From an uncultured virus (IMG/VR IMGVR_UViG_3300029305_005079) (lineage: Duplodnaviria > Heunggongvirae > Uroviricota > Caudoviricetes): a DNA stretch of 20,000 bases. Positions 1,979 through 20,000 of the stretch are shown here, one piece after another. Both the position numbers and the translations under genes were made by a program. How positions within the stretch are numbered: the first letter of the stretch is position 1; the number at the start of each line of letters is the position of its first letter. The stretch lies in the IMG/VR virus record IMGVR_UViG_3300029305_005079; one strand, written 5' to 3'. Under the pieces are notes generated by a model. The model ran no database searches, was not told the origin of the DNA, and saw only the letters and a list, made by a program, of their open reading frames with translations.

Positions 1979-1990
1979 AACATTCTAATA
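1979..1990 (+). promoter_or_regulatory. AACA-N6-TA putative late (non-virion RNAP-type) promoter
   Basis: AACAttctaaTA directly before the RBS of the RNAP gene; one of nine copies in the window. Confidence 0.6.
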
Positions 1991-2007
1991 GGAGGTGTTA
2001 ATAACTT

Positions 2008-2880
2008 ATGGCAAAGATGACAGTAAATACAAGGTACTCGAAGGATGACAACTATGAGTACGAAACTCGTCTTGAACGTATTAATATGGATACAGAACGA
2101 AGAAAAGACGTACTTTCAGGTAACGGCTTTATCGTAAGTTCTCCCAAAGCAATCAAAGACGACATTAAAGACCCGAACGGTATCTATTCAACAAAGTATG
2201 GTCCTGGTCTTCAGGATGCTAATGCTTTTGGTAATAGATATAGATGTAAATGTGGACATACTACGTCAAGATTCTATCATGGTCTTGTATGTGAAGTATG
2301 TGGAGAAAAGGTAGAATTTAAGGATGACAACTTTAGCATGTTTGGCTATATTTGTCTTAAGAATCCTTATTATATCATTCATCCCAACCTATTTATGTCT
2401 CTCGCTTTCTTTATTGGTGAAAAAGATTTTATGGGTATAATCACACCAGATGATAGAAAAGACGAAGATGGTCATGAGATTGAAATTAAAAGACCTAAAG
2501 ACGAACCTTTTAGAGGTATCGGTATGATGGATTTCTATGAAAGATTTGATGAAATCATGGAATACTATTGTGCTAAGAAACCTCAGAAACGTGAATATTA
2601 TGATAATATTATGGAAGACAAGGATAAAGTATTTATCCAATCTATTCCTGTATTTACCATTCACTTAAGACCATTCAGATTAGATGGCGGTGTATTCCAC
2701 TTTGAGGGAACTAATGCTACCTATAATATGATGGCAAACATAGCTGCCAGAATTAATGATGATAAGACGGCTATGAATAGAAAAAAGAAACCTAAAAATC
2801 AGCTACTATTTGATCTTCAGATGAAATATAGAGAGCTCTATGATGAAATCAGAAAGATTATAAGTGGTAAGAAAGGATCT
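2008..2880 (+). CDS. rpoC: Phage multisubunit RNA polymerase beta'-like subunit, N-terminal half, exon 1 (291 codons)
   Basis: beta' N-terminal signatures: DPNGIYSTKYGP, zinc-binding CKCG...CEVCG, FGYICL, IIHP. Ends in ISGKKGS (compare beta' L.GK.GR). The ORF track reads on into the intron to 2967. Confidence 0.9.
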
Positions 2881-3270
2881 AGAGAGTTCTTATGGATCCC
2901 TGTAGCGAAATCTACAGAAAACAACCTCTTGAATTGCTGGAAGGCTAAACTCGAAAGAGCATGCTAATCAGCAGCGAAGTAAGATATATGGCAGGATGGC
3001 GAAATTGGAAAACGCAATCGACGGGCTTATATCTATATGAGCTACACACTCATGATATAAGAATTGATTTACTGGTTCTAATCCAGATCCAAACTGGGGG
3101 TTCGAGCCCCTCTCCTGCCACCATTCTTAAACGTTCAACGACTATCGAAAGACGTCTATTATAGATGAATCTAGTAGAGTAGGAGAAATCCGAAGTGGGA
3201 GGATCCCAAACAAGTAAAGCTGTGGGATAAGATATAGTCTGATCCATAGTGAAAACTATGTGGCTCAATG
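2881..3270 (+). ncRNA. Group I self-splicing intron (probably subgroup IA), 390 nt, no homing endonuclease
   Basis: P1: exon GGAUCU pairs with GGAUCC (2894-2899), giving a U.G pair at the splice site. P10: GUUCUUAU (2886-2893) pairs with exon-2 AUAAGAGC. Core: P GAATTGCTGGAA (2931), Q AATCAGCAG (2966), R GTTCAACGACTAT (3133), S AAGATATAGTCT (3229). P9 CATAGT-GAAA-ACTATG; terminal G at 3270. Removal restores the frame KKGS|IRALFGGR. Confidence 0.93.
2990..3123 (+). tRNA. tRNA-like element (Leu-type D arm, long variable arm, CCA end) with an abnormally elongated anticodon arm, nested in the intron
   Basis: Acceptor GGCAGGA/TCCTGCC + A + CCA; D arm GCG-AAATTGGAAAA-CGC; T arm GGGGG-TTCGAGC-CCCTC; variable hairpin CTGG/CCAG. 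The anticodon arm is a 52-nt extended hairpin (3017..3068). Confidence 0.75.
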
Positions 3271-3900
3271 ATAAGAGCACTTTTCGGGGGACGATATAAC
3301 TTTACAGCAAGATCTGTTATTGCCCCCGGTCCTGATCTTAGGATCGATGAAGTTGCTCTGAGTTATCCGTGTTTGTGCGGATTACTTCAGCAACGAATTA
3401 TTAATATACTTCATAAATCTTATTTTATGAAGTATAATGATGCATATAAGCTTCTTCATGAATCCATGCATCAAGAGAATCCTATCATTAGACAGATAAT
3501 AGAAGGTATTATTAAGTCTACCGATAGAGGAATTCCTGTATTGATTAATAGAAATCCTACAATATCTTATGGTGGTATCTTACAAGTATATTGTAGTAGA
3601 ATTTCTGAAGGATATACAATGCTATTGAATCTGCAGATCCTTGAAGGATTGGCTGCAGACTTTGATGGAGACACCTTAAATATCCTTCTTATTATTAATC
3701 AAGATTTTCAACAAGCTGCAGAGTATGTATTTAATCCTCGTAATTCGATGTATATATCTAAGAATGATGGTATGTTTAATAACTCATATAATCATAAGAG
3801 AGATACAATCATTAATATGAATACATTAGTACAGCTTAGTAGAAGTAAATATAGTGCTGATCAGATTGCAGCTATTAAGGCTGCGCAGGCTACTGTATAA
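3271..3900 (+). CDS. rpoC: Phage RNA polymerase beta'-like subunit, exon 2 (catalytic region); spliced product about 500 aa
   Basis: GGRYNFTARSVI (compare GKRVDYSGRSVI), LINRNPTI, catalytic ADFDGD motif. The protein stops soon after the motif, as in the split beta' of phiKZ/AR9-like phages. Confidence 0.92.
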   Translation: MRALFGGRYNFTARSVIAPGPDLRIDEVALSYPCLCGLLQQRIINILHKSYFMKYNDAYKLLHESMHQENPIIRQIIEGIIKSTDRGIPVLINRNPTISYGGILQVYCSRISEGYTMLLNLQILEGLAADFDGDTLNILLIINQDFQQAAEYVFNPRNSMYISKNDGMFNNSYNHKRDTIINMNTLVQLSRSKYSADQIAAIKAAQATV

Positions 3901-3909
3901 AATAATAAT

Positions 3910-3948
3910 AGACTCGGGTTAGAAATAACCCGAGTCTTAATTTTATTA
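3910..3948 (+). terminator. Hairpin / probable terminator
   Basis: AGACTCGGGTTA-GAAA-TAACCCGAGTCT followed by an AT-rich tail. Confidence 0.65.
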
Positions 3949-3964
3949 AAAGGAGATTTTTATT

Positions 3965-4444
3965 ATGCTTTTACTTAAATTTGTAAATAAGATCGTTAAT
4001 AAACAATCTAGGATGCAAAGAGAAAGCATGACGGATATCTTGATATACAAAGATGTAGATAAACGATATCAAGATATACGCATGGCGTATTTTTCTAATG
4101 GTATTAGATATGTAGCTCATAATGTTGTAAATGACAGAGAATCTTATAATGGAAAAATCAAATTCGAAACCAAGAGAGTTCCTGCTGTTCTTACTATTGA
4201 TAGAGTACATGTGTATCAGGTAGGAAATCGCTATGAATGCAGATATAGAATTTGCGATGGCGATAGAGAAGCTATCTATAATTTCAAAGGCATTCCAAAA
4301 TTTAACGAGAAAGATAATAATATAATTAAATCTATAACTGTAAATAATGGTACAACCGGAGTTTGGATAGTTATAGAAATGACCAATGATAAGCCTAGAT
4401 TAATTATATTCAATCTGGAAAAGACATCTATTATTTCCGAATAA
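3965..4444 (+). CDS. Hypothetical protein (159 aa)
   Basis: AAAGGAG RBS; the ORF ends just before a terminator. Confidence 0.75.
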   Translation: MLLLKFVNKIVNKQSRMQRESMTDILIYKDVDKRYQDIRMAYFSNGIRYVAHNVVNDRESYNGKIKFETKRVPAVLTIDRVHVYQVGNRYECRYRICDGDREAIYNFKGIPKFNEKDNNIIKSITVNNGTTGVWIVIEMTNDKPRLIIFNLEKTSIISE

Positions 4445-8800: not shown

Positions 8801-11800
8801 ATGTCTTCAACTCCAAGGCATCCCATTAGACTTTCTGTATATACTTCGGATGGTGTATACTATCCTAGAGAAATTACAGAAGCTAATGGTAAATTATACT
8901 TGATTAATGATGATGGCTCTGTGGTCGAGTTAAACAAAACCGCAGTGACAAAAATTACTGATGCCGCTGGAACCGCAATTGGTAGTGTGGATCCTACTAC
9001 CGGTGGAACAGTGGCCATTCCTAATGCCTCTACAACTAAAAGAGGTCTTGTTGTATTCGGAACTTCTACAGGTAAGGCGCCTGGTACAGCGTCTGCTGGT
9101 TCTTCCGATTCTGTTGCTAGAGCTGACCATGTACACCCTGTACAGACATCTGTAAGTGGTAATGCTGGTACGGCTACAAAACTAGCTAATGCTATTAACG
9201 TTAGTTTCTCTGGTGTAACTGGAGAATCTTTCAGTTTTGATGGTACTACAGATGTGACACTTAAAATTACAGCTGTACCTGCTAGCATCGTATCTGGTCT
9301 TGCTACAGTTGGCACTAGCGGAAAGTATTCTGATCTTTCCGGTCTTCCTACTATCTATCAGCCTGCTACAACAGCACCCAAAGTTGCTGGTACAGCTGCT
9401 GTAGGTACTGGTACTACATTTGCTAGAGCAGATCATGTACATCCTGCTCAGACTACGATTACTGGTAACGCAGGAAGCGCAACTAAATTAGCTACAGCTA
9501 GAACTATTACGGTTAGTGGCGTGACAGCTACTGGAGCATCTTTTGATGGTTCTGCTGATGCTACTATTGCTATTACCGCAGTACCAGCATCTATCGTATC
9601 TGGTCTTGCTACAGTCGCTACAAGCGGAAAGTACTCTGATCTTTCCGGTCTTCCTACAATTTATGGACCTTCTAGTACCACACCCAAAGCTGCTGGAACA
9701 GCTGCTGTAGGTACTGGTACTACATTTGCTAGAGCAGATCATGTACACCCTGCTCAGACTACTGTATCTGGTAATGCCGGTACGGCTACAAAGCTTAAGA
9801 ATACAGTAACCATTGGACTTTCTGGGGTAACTGCTACAGCACAGGAATTTGATGGATCTGATGATGTAACTATTCCGATTACAGCAGTTCCTGCTAGCAT
9901 AGTATCTGGTCTTGCTACAGTCGCTACAAGCGGAAAGTACTCTGATCTCTCTGGCTTGCCCACTATCTATGGACCTTCTAGTACCACGCCCAAAGCTGCT
10001 GGAACAGCTGCTGTAGGTACTGGTACTACATTTGCTAGAGCAGATCATGTACATCCTGCTCAGACTACGATTACTGGTAACGCAGGAAGCGCAACTAAGC
10101 TTGCTAGTGCAGTAAATATCAAACTCTCTGGGGGAGCAACTGGTACTGGATCTTTTGACGGATCTGGAGATACTACTATTAATGTAACAGCCCTTGACGG
10201 TTCCAAGATTACTGGTACTATTCCGCTCGCTTCTATTCCTAAGGGAGCTCAGGAGCGTCTTATTGTTGTTACAGATGATACTGCTAGACTTGCACTCACC
10301 TCTTCTGGTGCACAGAATGGCGATGTTGTTAAAGTAGAAAGCACTGGTATCATGTATTATATCGTGGATGATACGGCTATGGGTAGCGAAGATGCATTCT
10401 CTGTATTTACTGCAGGAGCTGCTTCCTCTGTTGCTTGGAGTGGCATTACTGGAAAACCTAGCACGTTTACTCCAGCTAGCCATAAACATTCTGCTGATGA
10501 TATCAATTCTGGAACGCTTGGAGTTGCTAGAGGTGGCACAGGCACTACTACATTTACTAGTGGTGCTGTACTTATTGGTAATGGAACTGGAGCTATTCAG
10601 ACTAGAGCTATCGATACAACTTCCGGGGGTACTTCTGGTAGTACTTCTCTTATTACCTCTGGTGCTGTATTTGCTGGACTTTCTGGAAAAGCAAACTCTT
10701 CTCATGGTACTCACGTAACTTATGGTACAGCGGCTCCTGTCGTTGCTGGTACAGCATCTGCCGGTTCTGCAGCAAGTGTATCTAGAAGTGACCACGTTCA
10801 CCCTGCACAGACATCTGTAAGTGGTAATGCTGGTACGGCTACTAAACTTAAGAGCACTGTGTCTATTGGTCTTTCTGGAGTAACAGCTACAGCTCAGGAA
10901 TTTGATGGATCTGATGATGTAACTATTCCGATTACAGCAGTTCCTGCTAGCATAGTATCTGGTCTTGCTACAGTCGCTACAAGCGGAAAGTACTCTGATC
11001 TCTCCGGAACTCCTAGTATCCCTTCAGCATCTAGCACCACTCCTAAGGCTGCTGGAACAGCTGCTGTAGGTACTGGTACTACATTTGCTAGAGCAGATCA
11101 TGTACACCCTGCTCAGACTACAATTACAGGTAATGCCGGAAGTGCTACAAAGGTTAATAGTAACCTTATTATCAAACTCAATGGCGGCACTACAGAAGGC
11201 ACGAATTTATTCACCTTTAATGGATCTGCCGCTAAGACTATTGATATCACCCCTGCAGGTATCGGTGCTGCAACAACTTCTGCACTGAGTACCCATACAT
11301 CCAATACATCTAACCCTCACAGTGTAACAAAATCTCAGATTGGATTAGGTAATGTAGATAATACTGCGGATGCTAATAAGGAAGTCAGATACGCCACAAG
11401 CGCCGGCCAAGCAGAGACTCTTAGCTGGATTAACAGGGCGACAAGCGGATCTGTAACTCCTCTTGGAGCCTCTCTTTCTGCTGAGCATAGCGCAAATAGA
11501 CTTGCATTCCTTAATCCTAATGCACTTACTATCGAATATTCCAATGATGGTGGATCTACTTGGTCTAATGCCGGTATTGCAGATGCAACAAAAGTTGGTT
11601 TTGTAACAACTTCTGGTACGTTAAATATCGGTTCTGCTTCATCCGTAACAACGAATCTTAAGACTAGAGTTACAGTTACAGCTCAAGATGGAACAACAGG
11701 CTATGTTTATACAAGACCCCGCAAACTTTTACTCAATGTCTCTACTGCTGGTCATGGAATATCTGTTACTATAGAAACAAAGACTGGAGCTAGCGGTGCA

Positions 11801-13675
11801 TCTTGGACAACCGTTGGAACTTATCCTCTTTCTGGATGGAGCGGATGGAATGATATTCCGCTTGCTTTCGCTACTCTTGGTGGTGGTGCAAATCAAACCA
11901 CTAATATCTGGTACATGAGGCTGACATTCTCAACAACCTCTGTTAATTCCTCTTATAATACTACTAAAGCAACAGTTCTTGGAATGAGACTGTTTGGCGA
12001 TACTTGTTGGACTAAAACAAGTAATATGGGCGAAACAGGTCATCTGTATTCCTATGATTATCAGCAGAATGCTACATTCCCTGCTGGTGTTACTGCAACA
12101 TCGTTTACTGGAGCTTTGAGTGGTAATGCATCTTCTGCTAATAAAGTAAATAATAATCTTATTATTAAATTTAACAGCGGTACTACAGAAGGTACAAACC
12201 TCTTTACATTTAACGGATCTGGTGCTAAGACTGTTAATATTACCCCTGGTGCTATTGGTGCTGCCGCTAGCAGTCATACTCATAATTATGCAGGATCTTC
12301 TTCTGCAGGTGGTGCTGCTAATAGCGTGGCTAATAGTATCATCATTAAACTTAACGGTGGTTCTACTGAAGGTACAAACTTGTTTACGTTTAACGGTTCT
12401 GGGGCTAAGACAATCAATATTACTCCTAGTGCTATTGGTGCTGCTGCAAGCTCGCATGGTACTCACGTAAGCTATGGAACTTCTGCTCCTGCTGCTGCGG
12501 GCACTGCTTCTGCTGGATCTGCTTCCACAGTATCTAGAAGTGACCACGTTCACCCTGCACAGACTACTATAAGTGGTAATGCTGGCTCTGCAACCAAGGT
12601 TAATAATAATCTTATTATCAAGCTTAATAGTGGTACTACAGAGGGTACAAATCTGTTTACCTTCAACGGTTCTGCTGCTAAGACTATTAATATCACTCCT
12701 AGCGCTATTGGTGCTGCTGCAAGCTCGCACGGTACTCATGTAAGCTTTAGCACAACCAACCCTGTAGTTGCTGGCACAGCTGCTGTGGGTACTGCTACTA
12801 CAGTATCTAGAAGCGACCACGTTCACCCTGCTCAGACTAGTGTAAGTGGAAATGCTGGTACGGCTACTAAATTCGCATCTGCTCAGTCTGTAACTCTTAC
12901 TGGCGACGTAACAGGAACTAAGTCGTCTCAGGCTGGTTGGTCTATAGCTACTACTCTTGCAAACTCTGGAGTAACTGCTGGATCTTATGGTCCTTCTGCA
13001 GATGCTTCTCCTGCTCATAAGGGTACATTTACAGTTCCTTATATCACTGTAGATGCTAAGGGTCGTGTAACAGCGGCTTCTACGAAGACTATCACACTTC
13101 CTGCAGATAATAATACTACCTATAGCCCTGCAACTCTTGGCTTTGGTAGAGGTACTTGTTCTACCGCATATGCTACTGTTGCAAAAGCAGTTACTCTTAG
13201 TGGCTATGCTCTTGTAACTGGAGGTATGGTTGCTGTACAGTTCACCTATGGTGTGCCTGCTGGTGCAACCCTTAATGTAAACTCTAAGGGTGCTAAGGCT
13301 ATTTATCATGGAACTGCTGCAATCAAGGATGGCGTAATTAAGGCTGGTGATACTGCTACATTCGTTTATAATGGTACTTACTATTATCTCGTATCTGTAG
13401 CAAGCGGATCTAATACTTATACTGCATCTATTACTACAACTTGGTCTGGTTCTGCGGCTCCTTATACTCAGACTATTACAGTATCTGGTATGAGCGCTAA
13501 TGATAATCCTATTGTAGATATCGTACCCGATTCGGATTATGATACTGCAGTAGAGCAGATGTATGAATACAATAAGATTTATCGCATTACAACTGCGCTT
13601 AATTCTATTACAGTTTATGCAACTGAGCCTACTGAAGTAGCTATTCCGATTCAGCTTAAATGCGTTAAGGCTTAA
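8801..13675 (+). CDS. Long repetitive tail fibre protein (1624 aa)
   Basis: Rich in T/A/S/G; eight (A/S)R(A/S)DHVHP motifs; GNAGTATKL..FDGS repeats; NPHSVTKSQIGLGNVDNTAD and ITVDAKGRVTAA motifs typical of phage fibres; AAGGAGGT RBS. Confidence 0.9.
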   Translation: MSSTPRHPIRLSVYTSDGVYYPREITEANGKLYLINDDGSVVELNKTAVTKITDAAGTAIGSVDPTTGGTVAIPNASTTKRGLVVFGTSTGKAPGTASAGSSDSVARADHVHPVQTSVSGNAGTATKLANAINVSFSGVTGESFSFDGTTDVTLKITAVPASIVSGLATVGTSGKYSDLSGLPTIYQPATTAPKVAGTAAVGTGTTFARADHVHPAQTTITGNAGSATKLATARTITVSGVTATGASFDGSADATIAITAVPASIVSGLATVATSGKYSDLSGLPTIYGPSSTTPKAAGTAAVGTGTTFARADHVHPAQTTVSGNAGTATKLKNTVTIGLSGVTATAQEFDGSDDVTIPITAVPASIVSGLATVATSGKYSDLSGLPTIYGPSSTTPKAAGTAAVGTGTTFARADHVHPAQTTITGNAGSATKLASAVNIKLSGGATGTGSFDGSGDTTINVTALDGSKITGTIPLASIPKGAQERLIVVTDDTARLALTSSGAQNGDVVKVESTGIMYYIVDDTAMGSEDAFSVFTAGAASSVAWSGITGKPSTFTPASHKHSADDINSGTLGVARGGTGTTTFTSGAVLIGNGTGAIQTRAIDTTSGGTSGSTSLITSGAVFAGLSGKANSSHGTHVTYGTAAPVVAGTASAGSAASVSRSDHVHPAQTSVSGNAGTATKLKSTVSIGLSGVTATAQEFDGSDDVTIPITAVPASIVSGLATVATSGKYSDLSGTPSIPSASSTTPKAAGTAAVGTGTTFARADHVHPAQTTITGNAGSATKVNSNLIIKLNGGTTEGTNLFTFNGSAAKTIDITPAGIGAATTSALSTHTSNTSNPHSVTKSQIGLGNVDNTADANKEVRYATSAGQAETLSWINRATSGSVTPLGASLSAEHSANRLAFLNPNALTIEYSNDGGSTWSNAGIADATKVGFVTTSGTLNIGSASSVTTNLKTRVTVTAQDGTTGYVYTRPRKLLLNVSTAGHGISVTIETKTGASGASWTTVGTYPLSGWSGWNDIPLAFATLGGGANQTTNIWYMRLTFSTTSVNSSYNTTKATVLGMRLFGDTCWTKTSNMGETGHLYSYDYQQNATFPAGVTATSFTGALSGNASSANKVNNNLIIKFNSGTTEGTNLFTFNGSGAKTVNITPGAIGAAASSHTHNYAGSSSAGGAANSVANSIIIKLNGGSTEGTNLFTFNGSGAKTINITPSAIGAAASSHGTHVSYGTSAPAAAGTASAGSASTVSRSDHVHPAQTTISGNAGSATKVNNNLIIKLNSGTTEGTNLFTFNGSAAKTINITPSAIGAAASSHGTHVSFSTTNPVVAGTAAVGTATTVSRSDHVHPAQTSVSGNAGTATKFASAQSVTLTGDVTGTKSSQAGWSIATTLANSGVTAGSYGPSADASPAHKGTFTVPYITVDAKGRVTAASTKTITLPADNNTTYSPATLGFGRGTCSTAYATVAKAVTLSGYALVTGGMVAVQFTYGVPAGATLNVNSKGAKAIYHGTAAIKDGVIKAGDTATFVYNGTYYYLVSVASGSNTYTASITTTWSGSAAPYTQTITVSGMSANDNPIVDIVPDSDYDTAVEQMYEYNKIYRITTALNSITVYATEPTEVAIPIQLKCVKA
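9117..11150 (+). repeat. Intragenic ~306-bp (102-aa) repeats in the tail fibre
   Basis: GCTAGAGCAGATCATGTACA at 9422, 9728, 10034 (306-bp spacing) and 11087, with long near-identical flanks. Confidence 0.85.
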
Positions 13676-16404: not shown

Positions 16405-16997
16405 TAAAAGAAGGAATAGGGGAAGGTAGAGTATGTTGGAGACCTTCCCCGTATTCCTATTGAAAAGCTTATCACATCTCATTCGGGACCAAATACTACT
16501 TAGACCATCAAAACTAAGTAGCCCGAATTGCTTGTCCGTAAATTCGCCTAGACATGAGCACATACTATAACAATGAGATCAATAAAATATATCTTCATAC
16601 TTAACATGTATCAGTGGTAGCAACACTGATACATGCTTTTGCATGTTGAGTATATTTTAATATGTAGATCTTAAAGGAGGCGAAAAGTAATGGATAATCA
16701 GACCACCGGACGTGAAGAAGATGACGATTAATCCAAAACCCTGGAGATGCTTATGCTTCCCAACCAAAATAATTTAAGGAGACATGTATATGAAACGTAA
16801 AAGCCGATAATGGTCTAGATAGGACACATCTCAAACCTATCTAGACCTAAACAATTTATGTAATATTGAGATACTACTCTTATTATCACGCCAATGATAT
16901 ATAAGAGAATAATAAGACTATTACGATATTAATAATCTTATTATGCCAAGGTCAAACAATATAGGGGTGCCGCCAAGCACCCCTATTATTTTTTTTT
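16401..16997 (+). ncRNA. Candidate large structured non-coding RNA or small-ORF leader region
   Basis: About 600 nt with no long ORF and at least eight stems, including nested ones; ends in a terminator at 16961..16997. Confidence 0.4.
16961..16997 (+). terminator. Rho-independent terminator
   Basis: ATAGGGGTGC-CGCCAA-GCACCCCTAT followed by a T tract. Confidence 0.75.
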
Positions 16998-17316: not shown

Positions 17317-17422
17317 GATTTTATAAATCCTCTCTTATGTATAAAGTGTAAGAAAATTTGTGTTGTTTTATTTATTACACGTTTTCTTCACCCAAATTAT
17401 ATATAAGAGAAAAATAAGACTT

Positions 17423-18889
17423 TTACAATATAGCTTTAGCAGTTAATTCAATAGACTGTTTAATATCAAGATTATAATCCTTTATTACACTATCTTTATC
17501 TCTTTTATCGAAATAAATATTAGCTGTAGGATAATAATTCTTGTTCTTACTTCGTCTCTTTTTCTTCTTTTCTTTAGGCTTTGGCTTATTAGCCTCTTGG
17601 TATTCTTCCTCATCGGGAAACTGAAATGATGTACTAGCAACTATTCTAGGCCCATCATTATAATACCGTATCAATACCTTATTATTCTCAACAGCTTCTC
17701 TAGATTGTCTAAGATTAGCTATATCTTCTTCAATCTGAAGAAGTTTATTATATTCTGGAGAATTTAATCTAGTTTCTGTAGCTTTACGCTGCAGCTCTTT
17801 TAGTTTCTCCAATTCTAATTCTCTATTACCTTGAAAATGTTCTTCTACATATCCGTTGGTATCAGATCTAAGCATCCAACCATTATATGCTGTAGCAGAA
17901 CTGAGTTTCTTTAGAGTAAATTTGCCCTTATATAATTCCCTATTTGCTTTTAAAGCATTATGGAGAATCTTCTTTCTAAGAGTTGTTTTGCCATAATTGA
18001 ATCTATAGCCGATAAAATCAATATCTCTATCCTCTAAACTAAAGACACAAGAGGTCTCCTTGAGCCAAAGTCCAAGAGGTTTAATATATTCATTTATTTT
18101 ATTCATAAGATTCATCAGTTTTCTCTTATTACTTCCAAGAATAACCATATCATCCATATATCTTATATAAATACTAACACCTGCTTCAGGCATTGCAACC
18201 TCTCTCAACCAATGGTCAAACTCTTGTAAATAGAAATTAGCAAACCACTGAGATGTATAATACCCTAGAGGTAAACCTTTATTCTTATCTCCATTAGTTC
18301 CTGGAGCAGAATAGATTATAATTCGGCAAAGTTCTATAATATCTTTGTCTTTAATCTTCTTCTCCAACATTTCTAACAAACGTCGTCTATCGATATTTTC
18401 AAAGAATTTCTTTATATCCATCTTTAGACAATGTTTATATCTCTTTCTTACAGGTATATGCACCTTCTTATTATCGTCATTAGAATCGTCTAAAGTCTTT
18501 TCAAGAAAGTTTTTAGCATAAAGAACACCTCTGTCCTTTATGCTCGCACAGCACCAATGATCCATACCCTTCATAAAGATATCTTTAAGTACGGTAATAA
18601 GTGCCCAATGTATTAATTGATCAGGGTATAGGATCGGTGCCTGAATATGGCGAACCTTACCACTACCTTTATCCACTCTAAAAGCTTCTCTCGGTTTTCT
18701 AGGCTTAAATTCTTTATCATGTAACAGCCTAGCCGCTTCGGCTATATAATATTCTTTATTATGTTTCATCATGAAAGCTAAAGATGTAGGATCACTCTTA
18801 CGTTTCTTATCTTTCATAACACCTTTATAGGCTTCTTCCATTATAGCTCTGGTATAGAGCTTGTTATATAGATTTCCGACCCGTTTCAC
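17423..18889 (-). CDS. DGR reverse transcriptase (488 aa, with C-terminal extension)
   Basis: MKRVGNLY N-terminus, LKMDIKKFF, GLPLGYYTSQWFAN (DGR-type SQ motif), YIRYMDD, IDFIGY; GTG start after AGAAAGGAG; adjacent TR/VR pair. Confidence 0.95.
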   Translation of the reverse strand: MKRVGNLYNKLYTRAIMEEAYKGVMKDKKRKSDPTSLAFMMKHNKEYYIAEAARLLHDKEFKPRKPREAFRVDKGSGKVRHIQAPILYPDQLIHWALITVLKDIFMKGMDHWCCASIKDRGVLYAKNFLEKTLDDSNDDNKKVHIPVRKRYKHCLKMDIKKFFENIDRRRLLEMLEKKIKDKDIIELCRIIIYSAPGTNGDKNKGLPLGYYTSQWFANFYLQEFDHWLREVAMPEAGVSIYIRYMDDMVILGSNKRKLMNLMNKINEYIKPLGLWLKETSCVFSLEDRDIDFIGYRFNYGKTTLRKKILHNALKANRELYKGKFTLKKLSSATAYNGWMLRSDTNGYVEEHFQGNRELELEKLKELQRKATETRLNSPEYNKLLQIEEDIANLRQSREAVENNKVLIRYYNDGPRIVASTSFQFPDEEEYQEANKPKPKEKKKKRRSKNKNYYPTANIYFDKRDKDSVIKDYNLDIKQSIELTAKAIL

Positions 18890-19051
18890 AATATATCAGG
18901 TCTCCTTTCTTATAATAGTAAATTTGCCATAGAAGCGAATCTATGCCAATCGGATCGATGGGTCATTTTAACCCCTATTCGACCCTAGCGGGCGTTCGAA
19001 TCATTCTTCATGCATTAGCATATATCTCATAATTAGAGAATGTCTGACCTA

Positions 19052-19552
19052 CTAGCCCACCTCGAGGCGGGCAATTTTTATCGAACTTAATCGATAAGGT
19101 TGTAGGATGCAGAAATCATTTACAAGCTTCTTTGTTTCGTTAAATCTATGAAAGAAGTTCCGAGAGAAGAAAGAGTGTAAAGATCCGATGTTCAATCGTG
19201 GTATTACTTCGCCTCGTAGAAGAAAAATACCATCCAGAATAGGGTTAAGCCGCGACAACACGCCCGCAATAATTGTCGTTGTTGTTCGACGGCGTATTGT
19301 TGATATTGGCGTAGAAAGGGCCAACATTCGCAGAGGTGTTGTTGTAGTTGCCGCCAACGTGCGCCACCTTACCCGAGTTGGAATTGACATACCAAGCCCG
19401 AGATTCACCCCACAACCTAATACATACTCATCATAGTATGACTTACAATTCGTTCCCAATGAATTATCATAACTATAATGCATTTTGTACGTATCATTGA
19501 TATGGTTACTTCTGTTAAAAAACAAAATGGAATTTTTCATAAAATTTTTCAT
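19052..19552 (-). CDS. Possible ORF (166 aa) running through the TR
   Basis: Strong AGAAAGGAGG RBS before the ATG at 19552, but the product is not Avd-like and overlaps the TR in a shifted frame. Confidence 0.3.
   Translation of the reverse strand: MKNFMKNSILFFNRSNHINDTYKMHYSYDNSLGTNCKSYYDEYVLGCGVNLGLGMSIPTRVRWRTLAATTTTPLRMLALSTPISTIRRRTTTTIIAGVLSRLNPILDGIFLLRGEVIPRLNIGSLHSFFSRNFFHRFNETKKLVNDFCILQPYRLSSIKIARLEVG
19244..19395 (-). repeat. DGR template repeat (TR)
   Basis: 152-bp ungapped match to 19728..19879; rich in AAC/AAT codons (reads WYVNSNSGKVAHVGGNYNNTSANVGPFYANINNTPSNNNDNYCGRVVAA*). It carries A at all 20 mismatch positions. Confidence 0.95.
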
Positions 19553-19596
19553 CGTATCTACCTCCTTTCTTAAAGGATTTTATATTTATTAATTAT

Positions 19597-19604
19597 GTAA
19601 TATA
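19597..19604 (-). promoter_or_regulatory. TATATTAC putative early promoter for the TR-RT transcript
   Basis: Exact phiKZ-type early motif located between the terminator and the RBS near 19560; the region is AT-rich, so a chance match is possible. Confidence 0.4.
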
Positions 19605-19623
19605 TGTATTATTTTACTATCAT

Positions 19624-19680
19624 AAAAAAGACAACCCCATCACCACGCTCCGCTCCCGCTTCGCTATGGTGATGGGGTTG
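19624..19680 (-). terminator. Terminator-like hairpin after the DGR target gene
   Basis: 14-bp stem CAACCCCATCACCA/TGGTGATGGGGTTG with a 21-nt loop, followed by TCTTTTTT on the minus strand. Confidence 0.65.
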
Positions 19681-19686
19681 GGGAAA

Positions 19687-19709
19687 GCAAGGGAGCTTCG
19701 CTCCCTTGC
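19687..19709 (-). promoter_or_regulatory. DGR target-recognition hairpin/cruciform
   Basis: GCAAGGGAGC-GAA-GCTCCCTTGC, about 19 nt after the VR stop codon; absent after the TR. Confidence 0.8.
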
Positions 19710-19727
19710 AAACCCTCTTCTCGGACT

Positions 19728-19879
19728 GTTAAGCCGCGACAACACGCCCGCAAAAAACGACGTTGTAGTTCGACGGCGCAACGTTGATATAGGCGCAGAA
19801 AGGGCCAACATTCGCAGAGGCGACGTTGCAGTAGCCGCCAACGCGCGCCACCATACCCGAGACGGAATTGACAAACCAA
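19728..19879 (-). repeat. DGR variable repeat (VR)
   Basis: Forms the 3' end of the target ORF; differs from the TR only at TR adenines. Confidence 0.95.
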
Positions 19880-20000
19880 TAGTCACACCATCCCAAAGTA
19901 TCGTCAGACTGACCAACAGAAGCTGTGATTGCAGCCCCATCCATAACAGGAATCATAGATGTAGGATACAATCCAGATCCTCTCGTATAACCATCTGCAA
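19729..20000 (-). CDS. DGR target protein, C-terminal part (C-type-lectin-fold-like variable domain; 5' end outside the window)
   Basis: The frame is open to the window edge. It ends ...RVGGYCNVASANVGPFCAYINVAPSNYNVVFCGRVVAA*, the GG...G.F....S......GR pattern of CLec-type DGR targets. Confidence 0.88.
   Translation of the reverse strand, partial: ADGYTRGSGLYPTSMIPVMDGAAITASVGQSDDTLGWCDYWFVNSVSGMVARVGGYCNVASANVGPFCAYINVAPSNYNVVFCGRVVAA

Follow-up and report, generated by a model that had tools for sequence, protein, structure and literature searches.

To our knowledge, the group I introns of phages have been viewed as selfish elements, with a homing endonuclease as the one cargo they carry. 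In cyanobacteria and plastids, group I introns lie in the anticodon loop of tRNA-Leu(UAA) genes. The species 1 and 2 RNAs of phage T4 are grouped with RNA1 and RNA2 of phage T5. The T5 record (AY543070) annotates both RNA1 (30501-30644) and RNA2 (32959-33083) as 'tRNA-like stable RNA with unknown functions'. In the T4 td intron, the homing endonuclease I-TevI is located in the P6 loop (PMC3073962), and tRNA genes within organellar introns have been recorded in fungal mitochondrial genomes of the Ophiostomatales (PMC7902536). Here we describe a 134-nt tRNA-like RNA nested inside a group I intron of the RNA polymerase beta-prime gene of an uncultured jumbo phage (IMG/VR record IMGVR_UViG_3300029305_005079, Caudoviricetes), within an analyzed stretch of 20,000 nt that we call the window.

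The closest known kind of RNA is phage T5 RNA1, whose predicted fold agrees with that of the window RNA in the order and sizes of its arms: the acceptor stem and a D arm of Leu type are followed by a long arm at the anticodon position (~56 nt), a variable hairpin whose loop has 7 nt, and the T arm. RNA1, however, stands alone as a gene in a tRNA cluster, and the window RNA is nested in L6 of a protein-gene intron. The covariance model that we built for the window family (R1) scores RNA1 (28.6 bits) like T5 tRNA-Leu (28.5 bits), a sequence similarity detected only across the common tRNA-Leu frame. Introns with homing endonucleases (T4 td with I-TevI, and the phiKZ- and AR9-type polymerase introns) resemble the window intron in their phage-type core, their position in conserved codons of an essential gene, and their cargo in P6 or P6a; in the related loci described below, introns sit beside or within the DFDGD motif. 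The cargo of those introns is a protein gene, whereas in the window it is a structured RNA in an intron without a conserved open reading frame (ORF). The tRNA-Leu(UAA) genes of cyanobacteria and plastids also nest tRNA-Leu and a group I intron physically, but there the intron is inside the tRNA, and the intron-encoded tRNAs of the Ophiostomatales differ in being organellar and decoding, while the window RNA is phage-borne and appears unable to decode.

Literature searches, which had most subscription journals outside their range, returned no account of a phage group I intron with a tRNA or a tRNA-like RNA nested in it, nor is one described in the accessible portions of PMC12908238 and PMC11878797. 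The initial annotation of this DNA, made without database searches, had known of no described example of the arrangement. Our searches agree with it for the nesting; the type of RNA, in contrast, is an old one, represented by T5 RNA1 and RNA2. The group I intron and the tRNA-like RNA are thus known kinds, and what differs here is their nesting and the exchangeable cassette.

The polymerase gene, its intron, and the parts of the nested element are arranged as follows, with the support for each assignment where it applies.

2008..2880, plus strand: 5' exon, phage multisubunit RNA polymerase beta-prime (N-terminal), ending ...GKKGS; phrog_2987 and tblastn continuity into exon 2.
2881..3270, plus strand: group I intron, 390 nt, with the 5' splice site after U2880 and the 3' splice site after G3270; RF00028 and intronless homologues.
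2980-2984, plus strand: 5' strand of P6a, TAAGA; pairs with 3125-3129 in the whole-intron fold and is invariant in the four variants.
2990..3123, plus strand: predicted tRNA-Leu-derived, non-decoding tRNA-like RNA, 134 nt; RF00005, fold, ARAGORN -i, and covariation.
2990-2996, plus strand: 5' strand of the acceptor stem, GGCAGGA; seven perfect pairs with TCCTGCC at 3113-3119.
2999..3015, plus strand: tRNA-Leu-type D arm; stem of 3 bp, loop of 11 nt containing GG.
3017..3068, plus strand: elongated arm at the anticodon-arm position, 52 nt; ATCGA/TTGAT, then CTTATATC/GATATAAG, then ATGAG/CTCAT, with the loop CTACACA.
3072..3086, plus strand: variable-arm hairpin, CTGG/CCAG, with the 7-nt loop TTCTAAT.
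3096..3112, plus strand: T arm, GGGGG / TTCGAGC / CCCTC.
3113..3123, plus strand: 3' strand of the acceptor stem, TCCTGCC (3113-3119), discriminator A3120 (A73), and encoded CCA (3121-3123).
3125-3129, plus strand: 3' strand of P6a, TCTTA; partner of 2980-2984 in the whole-intron fold.
3271..3903, plus strand: 3' exon, from IRALFGGRYNFTARSVI... via the catalytic AADFDGD motif to the stop codon; Pfam, PHROG, and translation.

Every element that the initial annotation had placed here (P6a, acceptor stem, discriminator A, CCA, D arm, 52-nt arm, variable hairpin, and T loop) was found again at the same coordinates.

Database comparison confirmed the earlier assignment of 2881-3270 to a group I intron of the phage RNA polymerase gene, which is a jumbo-phage beta-prime gene, with splicing predicted. 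The intron matches the Rfam model RF00028 at 69.7 bits (gathering threshold 50; model positions 1-253, window positions 2871-3261), the cmscan alignment places a 147-nt insert within the P6 loop, and the core is of the phage type (P7 GTTCAACGACTA, P7' AAGATATAGTC). The exons match one protein family in succession: exon 1 aligns to phrog_2987, 'RNA polymerase beta subunit', at 5.8e-22 over profile positions 46-282, and exon 2 at 3e-33 over positions 288-472, so that the joined exons cover both segments of the 478-position profile; exon 2 also matches the Pfam domain RNA_pol_Rpb1_2 (Rpb1 domain 2) at 3.1e-14. The cultured phages closest by protein sequence, with ~31% identity, are AR9/PBS1-like Bacillus phages, Staphylococcus jumbo phages, and Yersinia phage phiR1-37. 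A protein-guided search of IMG/VR yielded 33 related loci on contigs mostly of 150-260 kb, and in 23 of the 33 residue 290/291 of exon 1 abuts residue 1 of exon 2 (tblastn), giving a continuous conserved frame once the intron is removed. Because homologues without the intron join the exons exactly there, the borders 2881..3270 are fixed. We refer to related loci or sequences by L numbers and to whole-contig records of relatives by G numbers.

The intron contains only mechanical ORFs of 67 and 76 aa, which have no PHROG match at E 0.1 and whose frame is not kept in L005 or L116; a conserved intron ORF was rejected on these two grounds. No homing-endonuclease ORF was found inside the window intron, and without a conserved ORF the intron has no evident homing function. 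Neither a sigma-70-like promoter nor a terminator was found within the intron or near the nested module, so expression of the module would depend on the transcript of the host gene.

The nested element scores 35.5 bits against the Rfam tRNA model RF00005 (gathering threshold 29, E 2.9e-6) in a focused search of 191 nt (2960-3150), with 46 nt inserted in the anticodon arm of the alignment; the gathering scan of the whole window listed the intron and not the element. Its unconstrained minimum-energy fold is a cloverleaf (z -3.25, with 0 of 200 shuffles as good), and the same cloverleaf reappears when the whole intron is folded, there forming a domain of its own that P6a closes. ARAGORN by default calls no tRNA gene in the window, neither here nor elsewhere, and with its intron option calls exactly 2990-3123 with a 37-nt 'intron', a call whose amino-acid label is not to be read literally. 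Together with the four covarying variants described below, these results place the cloverleaf of the initial annotation beyond chance.

The element has the 7-bp acceptor stem, discriminator, CCA, D-loop GG, and TTCRA-type T loop of a tRNA. What it lacks is a 5-bp anticodon stem with a 7-nt loop, U33, and an anticodon, in place of which stands the three-helix arm of 52 nt. From base to tip, its helices of 5, 8, and 5 bp are separated first by a 4x2 internal loop and then by a 3-nt bulge, and a loop of 7 nt caps the tip. This arrangement, with its 4x2 internal loop, 8-bp helix, and single 3-nt bulge, is not the bulge-helix-bulge motif of pre-tRNA introns, and the tmRNA model RF00023 has no match in 2960-3150 at E up to 10. 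Since the anticodon arm has been turned into a rod of roughly 20 bp, the RNA would be unable to decode. The 18-mer at 2998-3015 recurs without a change as the D arm of canonical phage tRNA-Leu genes (L039, L047, and L068, for example), and outside the family the best matches of R1 are likewise canonical phage tRNA-Leu genes, at up to 47.4 bits; by sequence, then, the element is a tRNA-Leu derivative.

The module is present as four variants in three otherwise different introns. One variant, 87.6% identical to the window module and represented by L005, L006, and L007 (one sequence), occupies an intron at another site of the same polymerase gene, site B:

L005 3397-3836: intron, 440 nt, splitting the codons for DFD|GD.

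Another (L071, L079, and L116, again one sequence) lies in the intron of a gene unrelated to the polymerase; L001 belongs to the same contig, and its polymerase gene lacks the module. L108, from a metagenome, is a variant of this L116 type. A search with R1 of 31 related whole contigs located the module in four (G001, G002, G009, and G010). A weak R1 match in G012 was rejected as an ordinary intergenic tRNA-Lys. Among DNA contigs from other runs, one of 51.5 kb carries 2990-3123 unchanged, and a second differs from the window module solely at 3035, in the 3-nt bulge.

Alignment of the four variants revealed the compensatory changes that the initial annotation had proposed to look for in homologues. 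Standard pairs occupy 95.9% of the 148 pair cells, and eight pairs are changed on both sides (three in the acceptor stem, three in the basal helix of the long arm, and one each in its middle and distal helices), compared with 0-2 in six slid controls. All seven acceptor pairs are kept in all four variants. The window module and L079 differ by 13 substitutions in paired columns with one broken pair; between lineages, the figures are 13-15 substitutions and 0-1 broken pairs. The distal helix of the long arm has been replaced in L005, where four 'unpaired' cells seem, by eye, to reflect a different hairpin shifted in register by one column. Invariant are ACCA, U8, G9, and the D arm with its loop save one inserted A, the ACCA also in variants retrieved by searches that did not require CCA, and the T loop shows a single change, in L108, where A replaces G. 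At the tip of the long arm the loop varies freely (CTACACA, AGATC, and another sequence in L005). The variable hairpin has the loop TTCTAAT in three of the four variants and TTCTAGT in L005, and its stem is longer in L079 and L108 (about 8 bp) than in the other two (4 bp).

Standard tools detect these relatives poorly. The L005 module does not reach E 0.01 against RF00005, and Rfam returned nothing at E 0.1 on L005 or L001, although L005 clearly contains an intron; since its 440-nt intron is missed even at this threshold, intron counts based only on RF00028 must be too low in these phages. ARAGORN -i made no call on L001-L033 and is thus insensitive to the module variants. Motif scans of viral sequences were broader than the family: the D-arm 18-mer occurred in 36 stretches (three of L005 type, the rest other tRNAs, tRNA-like genes, and unrelated sequence), a T-arm/CCA/P7 pattern in nine, of which four were true, and a P5-P6 16-mer in 29, again with four true. 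The phages collection had no near match to window 2000-4000, and a distant search of it gave only generic pieces of intron core, none covering the module. In the genome contigs collection, a strict pattern gave 0 stretches and a loose one 72, with no nested tRNA among them; one of these, L131, has an intron-core motif but no tRNA.

Comparison of whole introns shows that the window intron is a mosaic. Intron positions 3-99 and 309-380 of the window are 91% and 90% identical to the intron of L020 at the same site (site A), whereas positions 52-264 are 86% identical to the site-B intron of L005, and positions 86-266 match the L116 intron in the unrelated gene at 83%. The 3' half of the L005 intron in turn resembles another L020 intron (79%). 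Universal core sequences, J3/4-P4 and P6'-P7, bound the shared block at its two ends. The P1-P2 and P7.1-P9 elements that accompany the module come in three different sets. In the same-site L020 intron, a 6-bp hairpin, CTCTAT-ATA-ATAGAG, stands in place of the module, and metagenome contigs contain two further short versions of P6. Because this 91%-identical intron has a plain P6 hairpin, splicing is probably independent of the module, which would make the module dispensable to the ribozyme. The simplest route to such a mosaic, we infer, is block transfer by recombination in the flanking core sequences.

Related loci can be dense in introns. The L020 polymerase gene (1985-4165) has at least four group I introns, two of them only ~7 codons apart, and the gene around the intron-borne tRNA-Leu of L114 (reverse strand, 1263-2900) has at least three Rfam-confirmed introns in 1.6 kb, followed by a fourth set of core motifs.

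The same P6 slot also holds canonical tRNA genes. L109 has a tRNA-Thr(UGU) of 70.4 bits, called by ARAGORN as well, inside a group I intron of 83.3 bits with a different P6a helix; L114, from G003, has a tRNA-Leu(UAA) of 54.8 bits inside an intron scoring 51 bits; and L113, from G002, has a tRNA-Leu(UAG) of 58.4 bits in an intron that, at 38.9 bits, falls short of the gathering threshold. These tRNAs share with the window RNA the slot, the intron family, the strand of the host gene, and the encoded CCA, and differ in being normal tRNAs of 76-88 nt with 7-nt anticodon loops, where the window RNA has its 52-nt rod. In G002 the mimic occurs alongside a canonical intron-borne tRNA-Leu and is therefore not the sole, decaying tRNA-Leu of that phage. 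When the L113 and L109 introns were compared with the phages collection, no record contained the tRNA and the core together (best coverage 16% and 34%). A further tRNA-like RNA occupies the slot in L110. It is unrelated to the window element, from which it differs in acceptor, D arm, and long arm; its arm at the anticodon position is ~44 nt, and it has no variable hairpin. The P6a sequence is swapped for other self-complementary sequences in L109 and L110.

Free-standing RNAs of comparable build were also seen in viral sequences. Those at L042 1493-1630, L063 1268-1419 (minus strand), L066 1355-1540 (minus strand), L037 1366-1533 (minus strand), and L040 720-867 (minus strand) combine the acceptor stem and T arm of a tRNA with a Leu-type D arm, with 60-110 nt of other structure replacing the anticodon arm, and some of them lie within tRNA arrays. 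L040, L043, L046, and L067 contain tRNA-like genes of ~70 nt in which 8-9 consecutive A make up the 'anticodon loop'.

On balance, we lean toward reading the 134-nt element as a cargo gene for an RNA that tRNA-processing enzymes probably set free. It occupies L6 of an ORF-less group I intron, closed by P6a, the slot usually taken by a homing endonuclease. The module would be transcribed with the polymerase pre-mRNA, its tRNA-like domain would fold independently, and the intron would then excise itself. The tRNA-maturation enzymes of the host would probably release the mimic, with an RNase P cut between U2989 and G2990 and 3' trimming that halts at the encoded CCA, leaving a stable, rod-bearing RNA of Leu type, the same kind as T5 RNA1. 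RNase P uses U at -1, G at +1, a 7-bp stem, the T arm, and CCA, all of which are found at the element. The main support for release is provided by the canonical tRNAs in P6, which can work only if they are cut from the intron RNA. Movement of the P5-P6 segment with its cargo among introns would presumably occur by recombination in the flanking conserved core. Leucyl-tRNA synthetase does not read the anticodon, so that charging of the mimic with leucine is conceivable, and our best guess at its job would be a non-decoding substrate or decoy of Leu type for tRNA-binding enzymes. The initial annotation had suggested that the intron may act as a carrier that releases a tRNA mimic, for example as a decoy for anticodon nucleases, synthetases, or ribosomes. 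Its carrier part is supported by the presence of the module in three introns, its absence from a 91%-identical one, the compensatory changes, and the nested canonical tRNAs; the release and the decoy function are what we infer beyond this.

Several observations weigh against this reading. The 5' leader and 3' trailer are paired with each other (P6a) beside the acceptor stem, which could hinder RNase P, and cleavage that preceded splicing would sever the polymerase pre-mRNA. The T arm is imperfect in two of the four variants, with one inserted base in L005 and a U.U pair in L108. Between L116 and L108 (97.7% identical over 392 nt), five of the nine differences fall inside the 138-nt module, which is thus not visibly better conserved than the ribozyme. 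The covariation comes from four sequences in three lineages, and its shuffle control does not amount to a probability.

The tRNA-shaped domain might instead stay in the intron and act in cis, as a peripheral scaffold or as a handle for a tRNA-binding protein such as leucyl-tRNA synthetase. Mitochondrial tyrosyl- and leucyl-tRNA synthetases assist group I splicing, the top half of the module is of tRNA-Leu type with A73, and the module is joined through the conserved P6a helix. We nevertheless consider this role unlikely: the L020 intron at the same site lacks the module, the occurrence of the module with three sets of P1-P2 and P7.1-P9 makes specific tertiary contacts with the periphery improbable, and a scaffold offers no reason for an invariant encoded CCA. 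It is quite unlikely, too, that the element is a dead tRNA-Leu gene, a former cargo disabled by the insertion of a ~35-nt hairpin in its anticodon loop and tolerated as L6 accepts inserts. Such a history would suit the canonical tRNA-Leu genes in related introns, the damaged T arms of L005 and L108, and the closest pair of variants, in which the module enjoys no extra conservation; it is at odds with the few broken pairs among 13-15 paired-column substitutions, with doubly changed pairs that lie partly in the inserted arm, with an elongated design kept in three introns and recurring independently in L110, and with the coexistence of the mimic and an intact tRNA-Leu in G002.

The position of the module within the pre-mRNA of an essential gene, and the RNase P features of its acceptor stem, T arm, and CCA, would also be compatible with a regulatory switch, much like the alternative raised in the initial annotation, in which the unspliced precursor is either spliced or cut at the module by RNase P and the output of beta-prime tracks the tRNA-processing capacity of the host. 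The other two variant types are intronic as well, one in the same polymerase gene and one in an unassigned gene. The presence of the cassette in that unassigned gene (L116) speaks against the switch, however, as does a site-A intron in L020 that works without it, and we hold this explanation to be highly improbable. We give very little credence to an unconventional decoding tRNA, which would either read UAG through the variable-hairpin loop TTCTAAT, with CTA in its middle, or become a normal tRNA after removal of the extension. The loop is TTCTAAT or TTCTAGT in all four variants, and none of the 19 plus-strand ORFs in the window (at least 100 aa and reaching a stop) ends in TAG, 14 ending in TAA and five in TGA. 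But reading TAG as sense lengthens ORFs less than reading TGA or TAA does and merges no genes, and minus-strand ORFs do end in TAG. As to structure, the stem of the variable hairpin is 4 bp in two variants and ~8 bp in two, rather than 5 bp, the D stem stacks with the long arm and not with this hairpin, the bulge-helix-bulge is absent, and excision of the ARAGORN 'intron' leaves a loop without U33. Amber suppression or TAG recoding was rejected as having no support within the 20-kb window.

Elsewhere in the window, a diversity-generating retroelement occupies 17423-19940 on the minus strand. Its reverse transcriptase matches Pfam RVT_1 at 3e-18 (17423-18889, minus strand). A 152-nt repeat pair consists of a template copy at 19244-19395 and a variable copy at 19728-19879, the latter at the 3' end of an ORF at 19620-19940 (minus strand), and all of the ~20 differences between the copies are A in the template and T or G in the variable copy. 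Just downstream of the reverse-transcriptase gene, a 44-nt direct repeat (16886-16929 and 17388-17431) is 86% identical, its copies 502 nt apart. On the plus strand, 8801-13675 is an ORF of 1624 aa made mostly of tandem repeats of ~306 nt (families D1-D4), with weak PHROG matches to tail-fibre and head-decoration proteins.

As a wider and clearly more speculative proposal, which we offer as possible but doubtful, jumbo-phage introns that lost a homing endonuclease, or never had one, may form an exchangeable expression platform for genes of tRNAs and tRNA mimics. The cassette would hop by way of the ribozyme core, its cargo would be made when, and because, the phage polymerase gene is transcribed and spliced, and the Leu-type mimic would be a purpose-built non-decoding RNA that pays for the intron's keep, perhaps a leucine acceptor or a decoy for host enzymes of tRNA binding, cleavage, or charging. 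With true tRNA genes present in sister introns, a conserved, structurally selected RNA gene would make a second class of cargo beside the homing endonuclease, and such RNA cargo would help to explain why introns without an ORF persist in essential genes. Look-alikes of T5 RNA1 would gain a new genomic context, with their synthesis tied to the splicing of a polymerase mRNA, and the window intron would offer a compact natural test case in which RNase P and a self-splicing ribozyme share one transcript. These findings suggest that the group I introns of giant gut phages are also carriers for small RNA genes.

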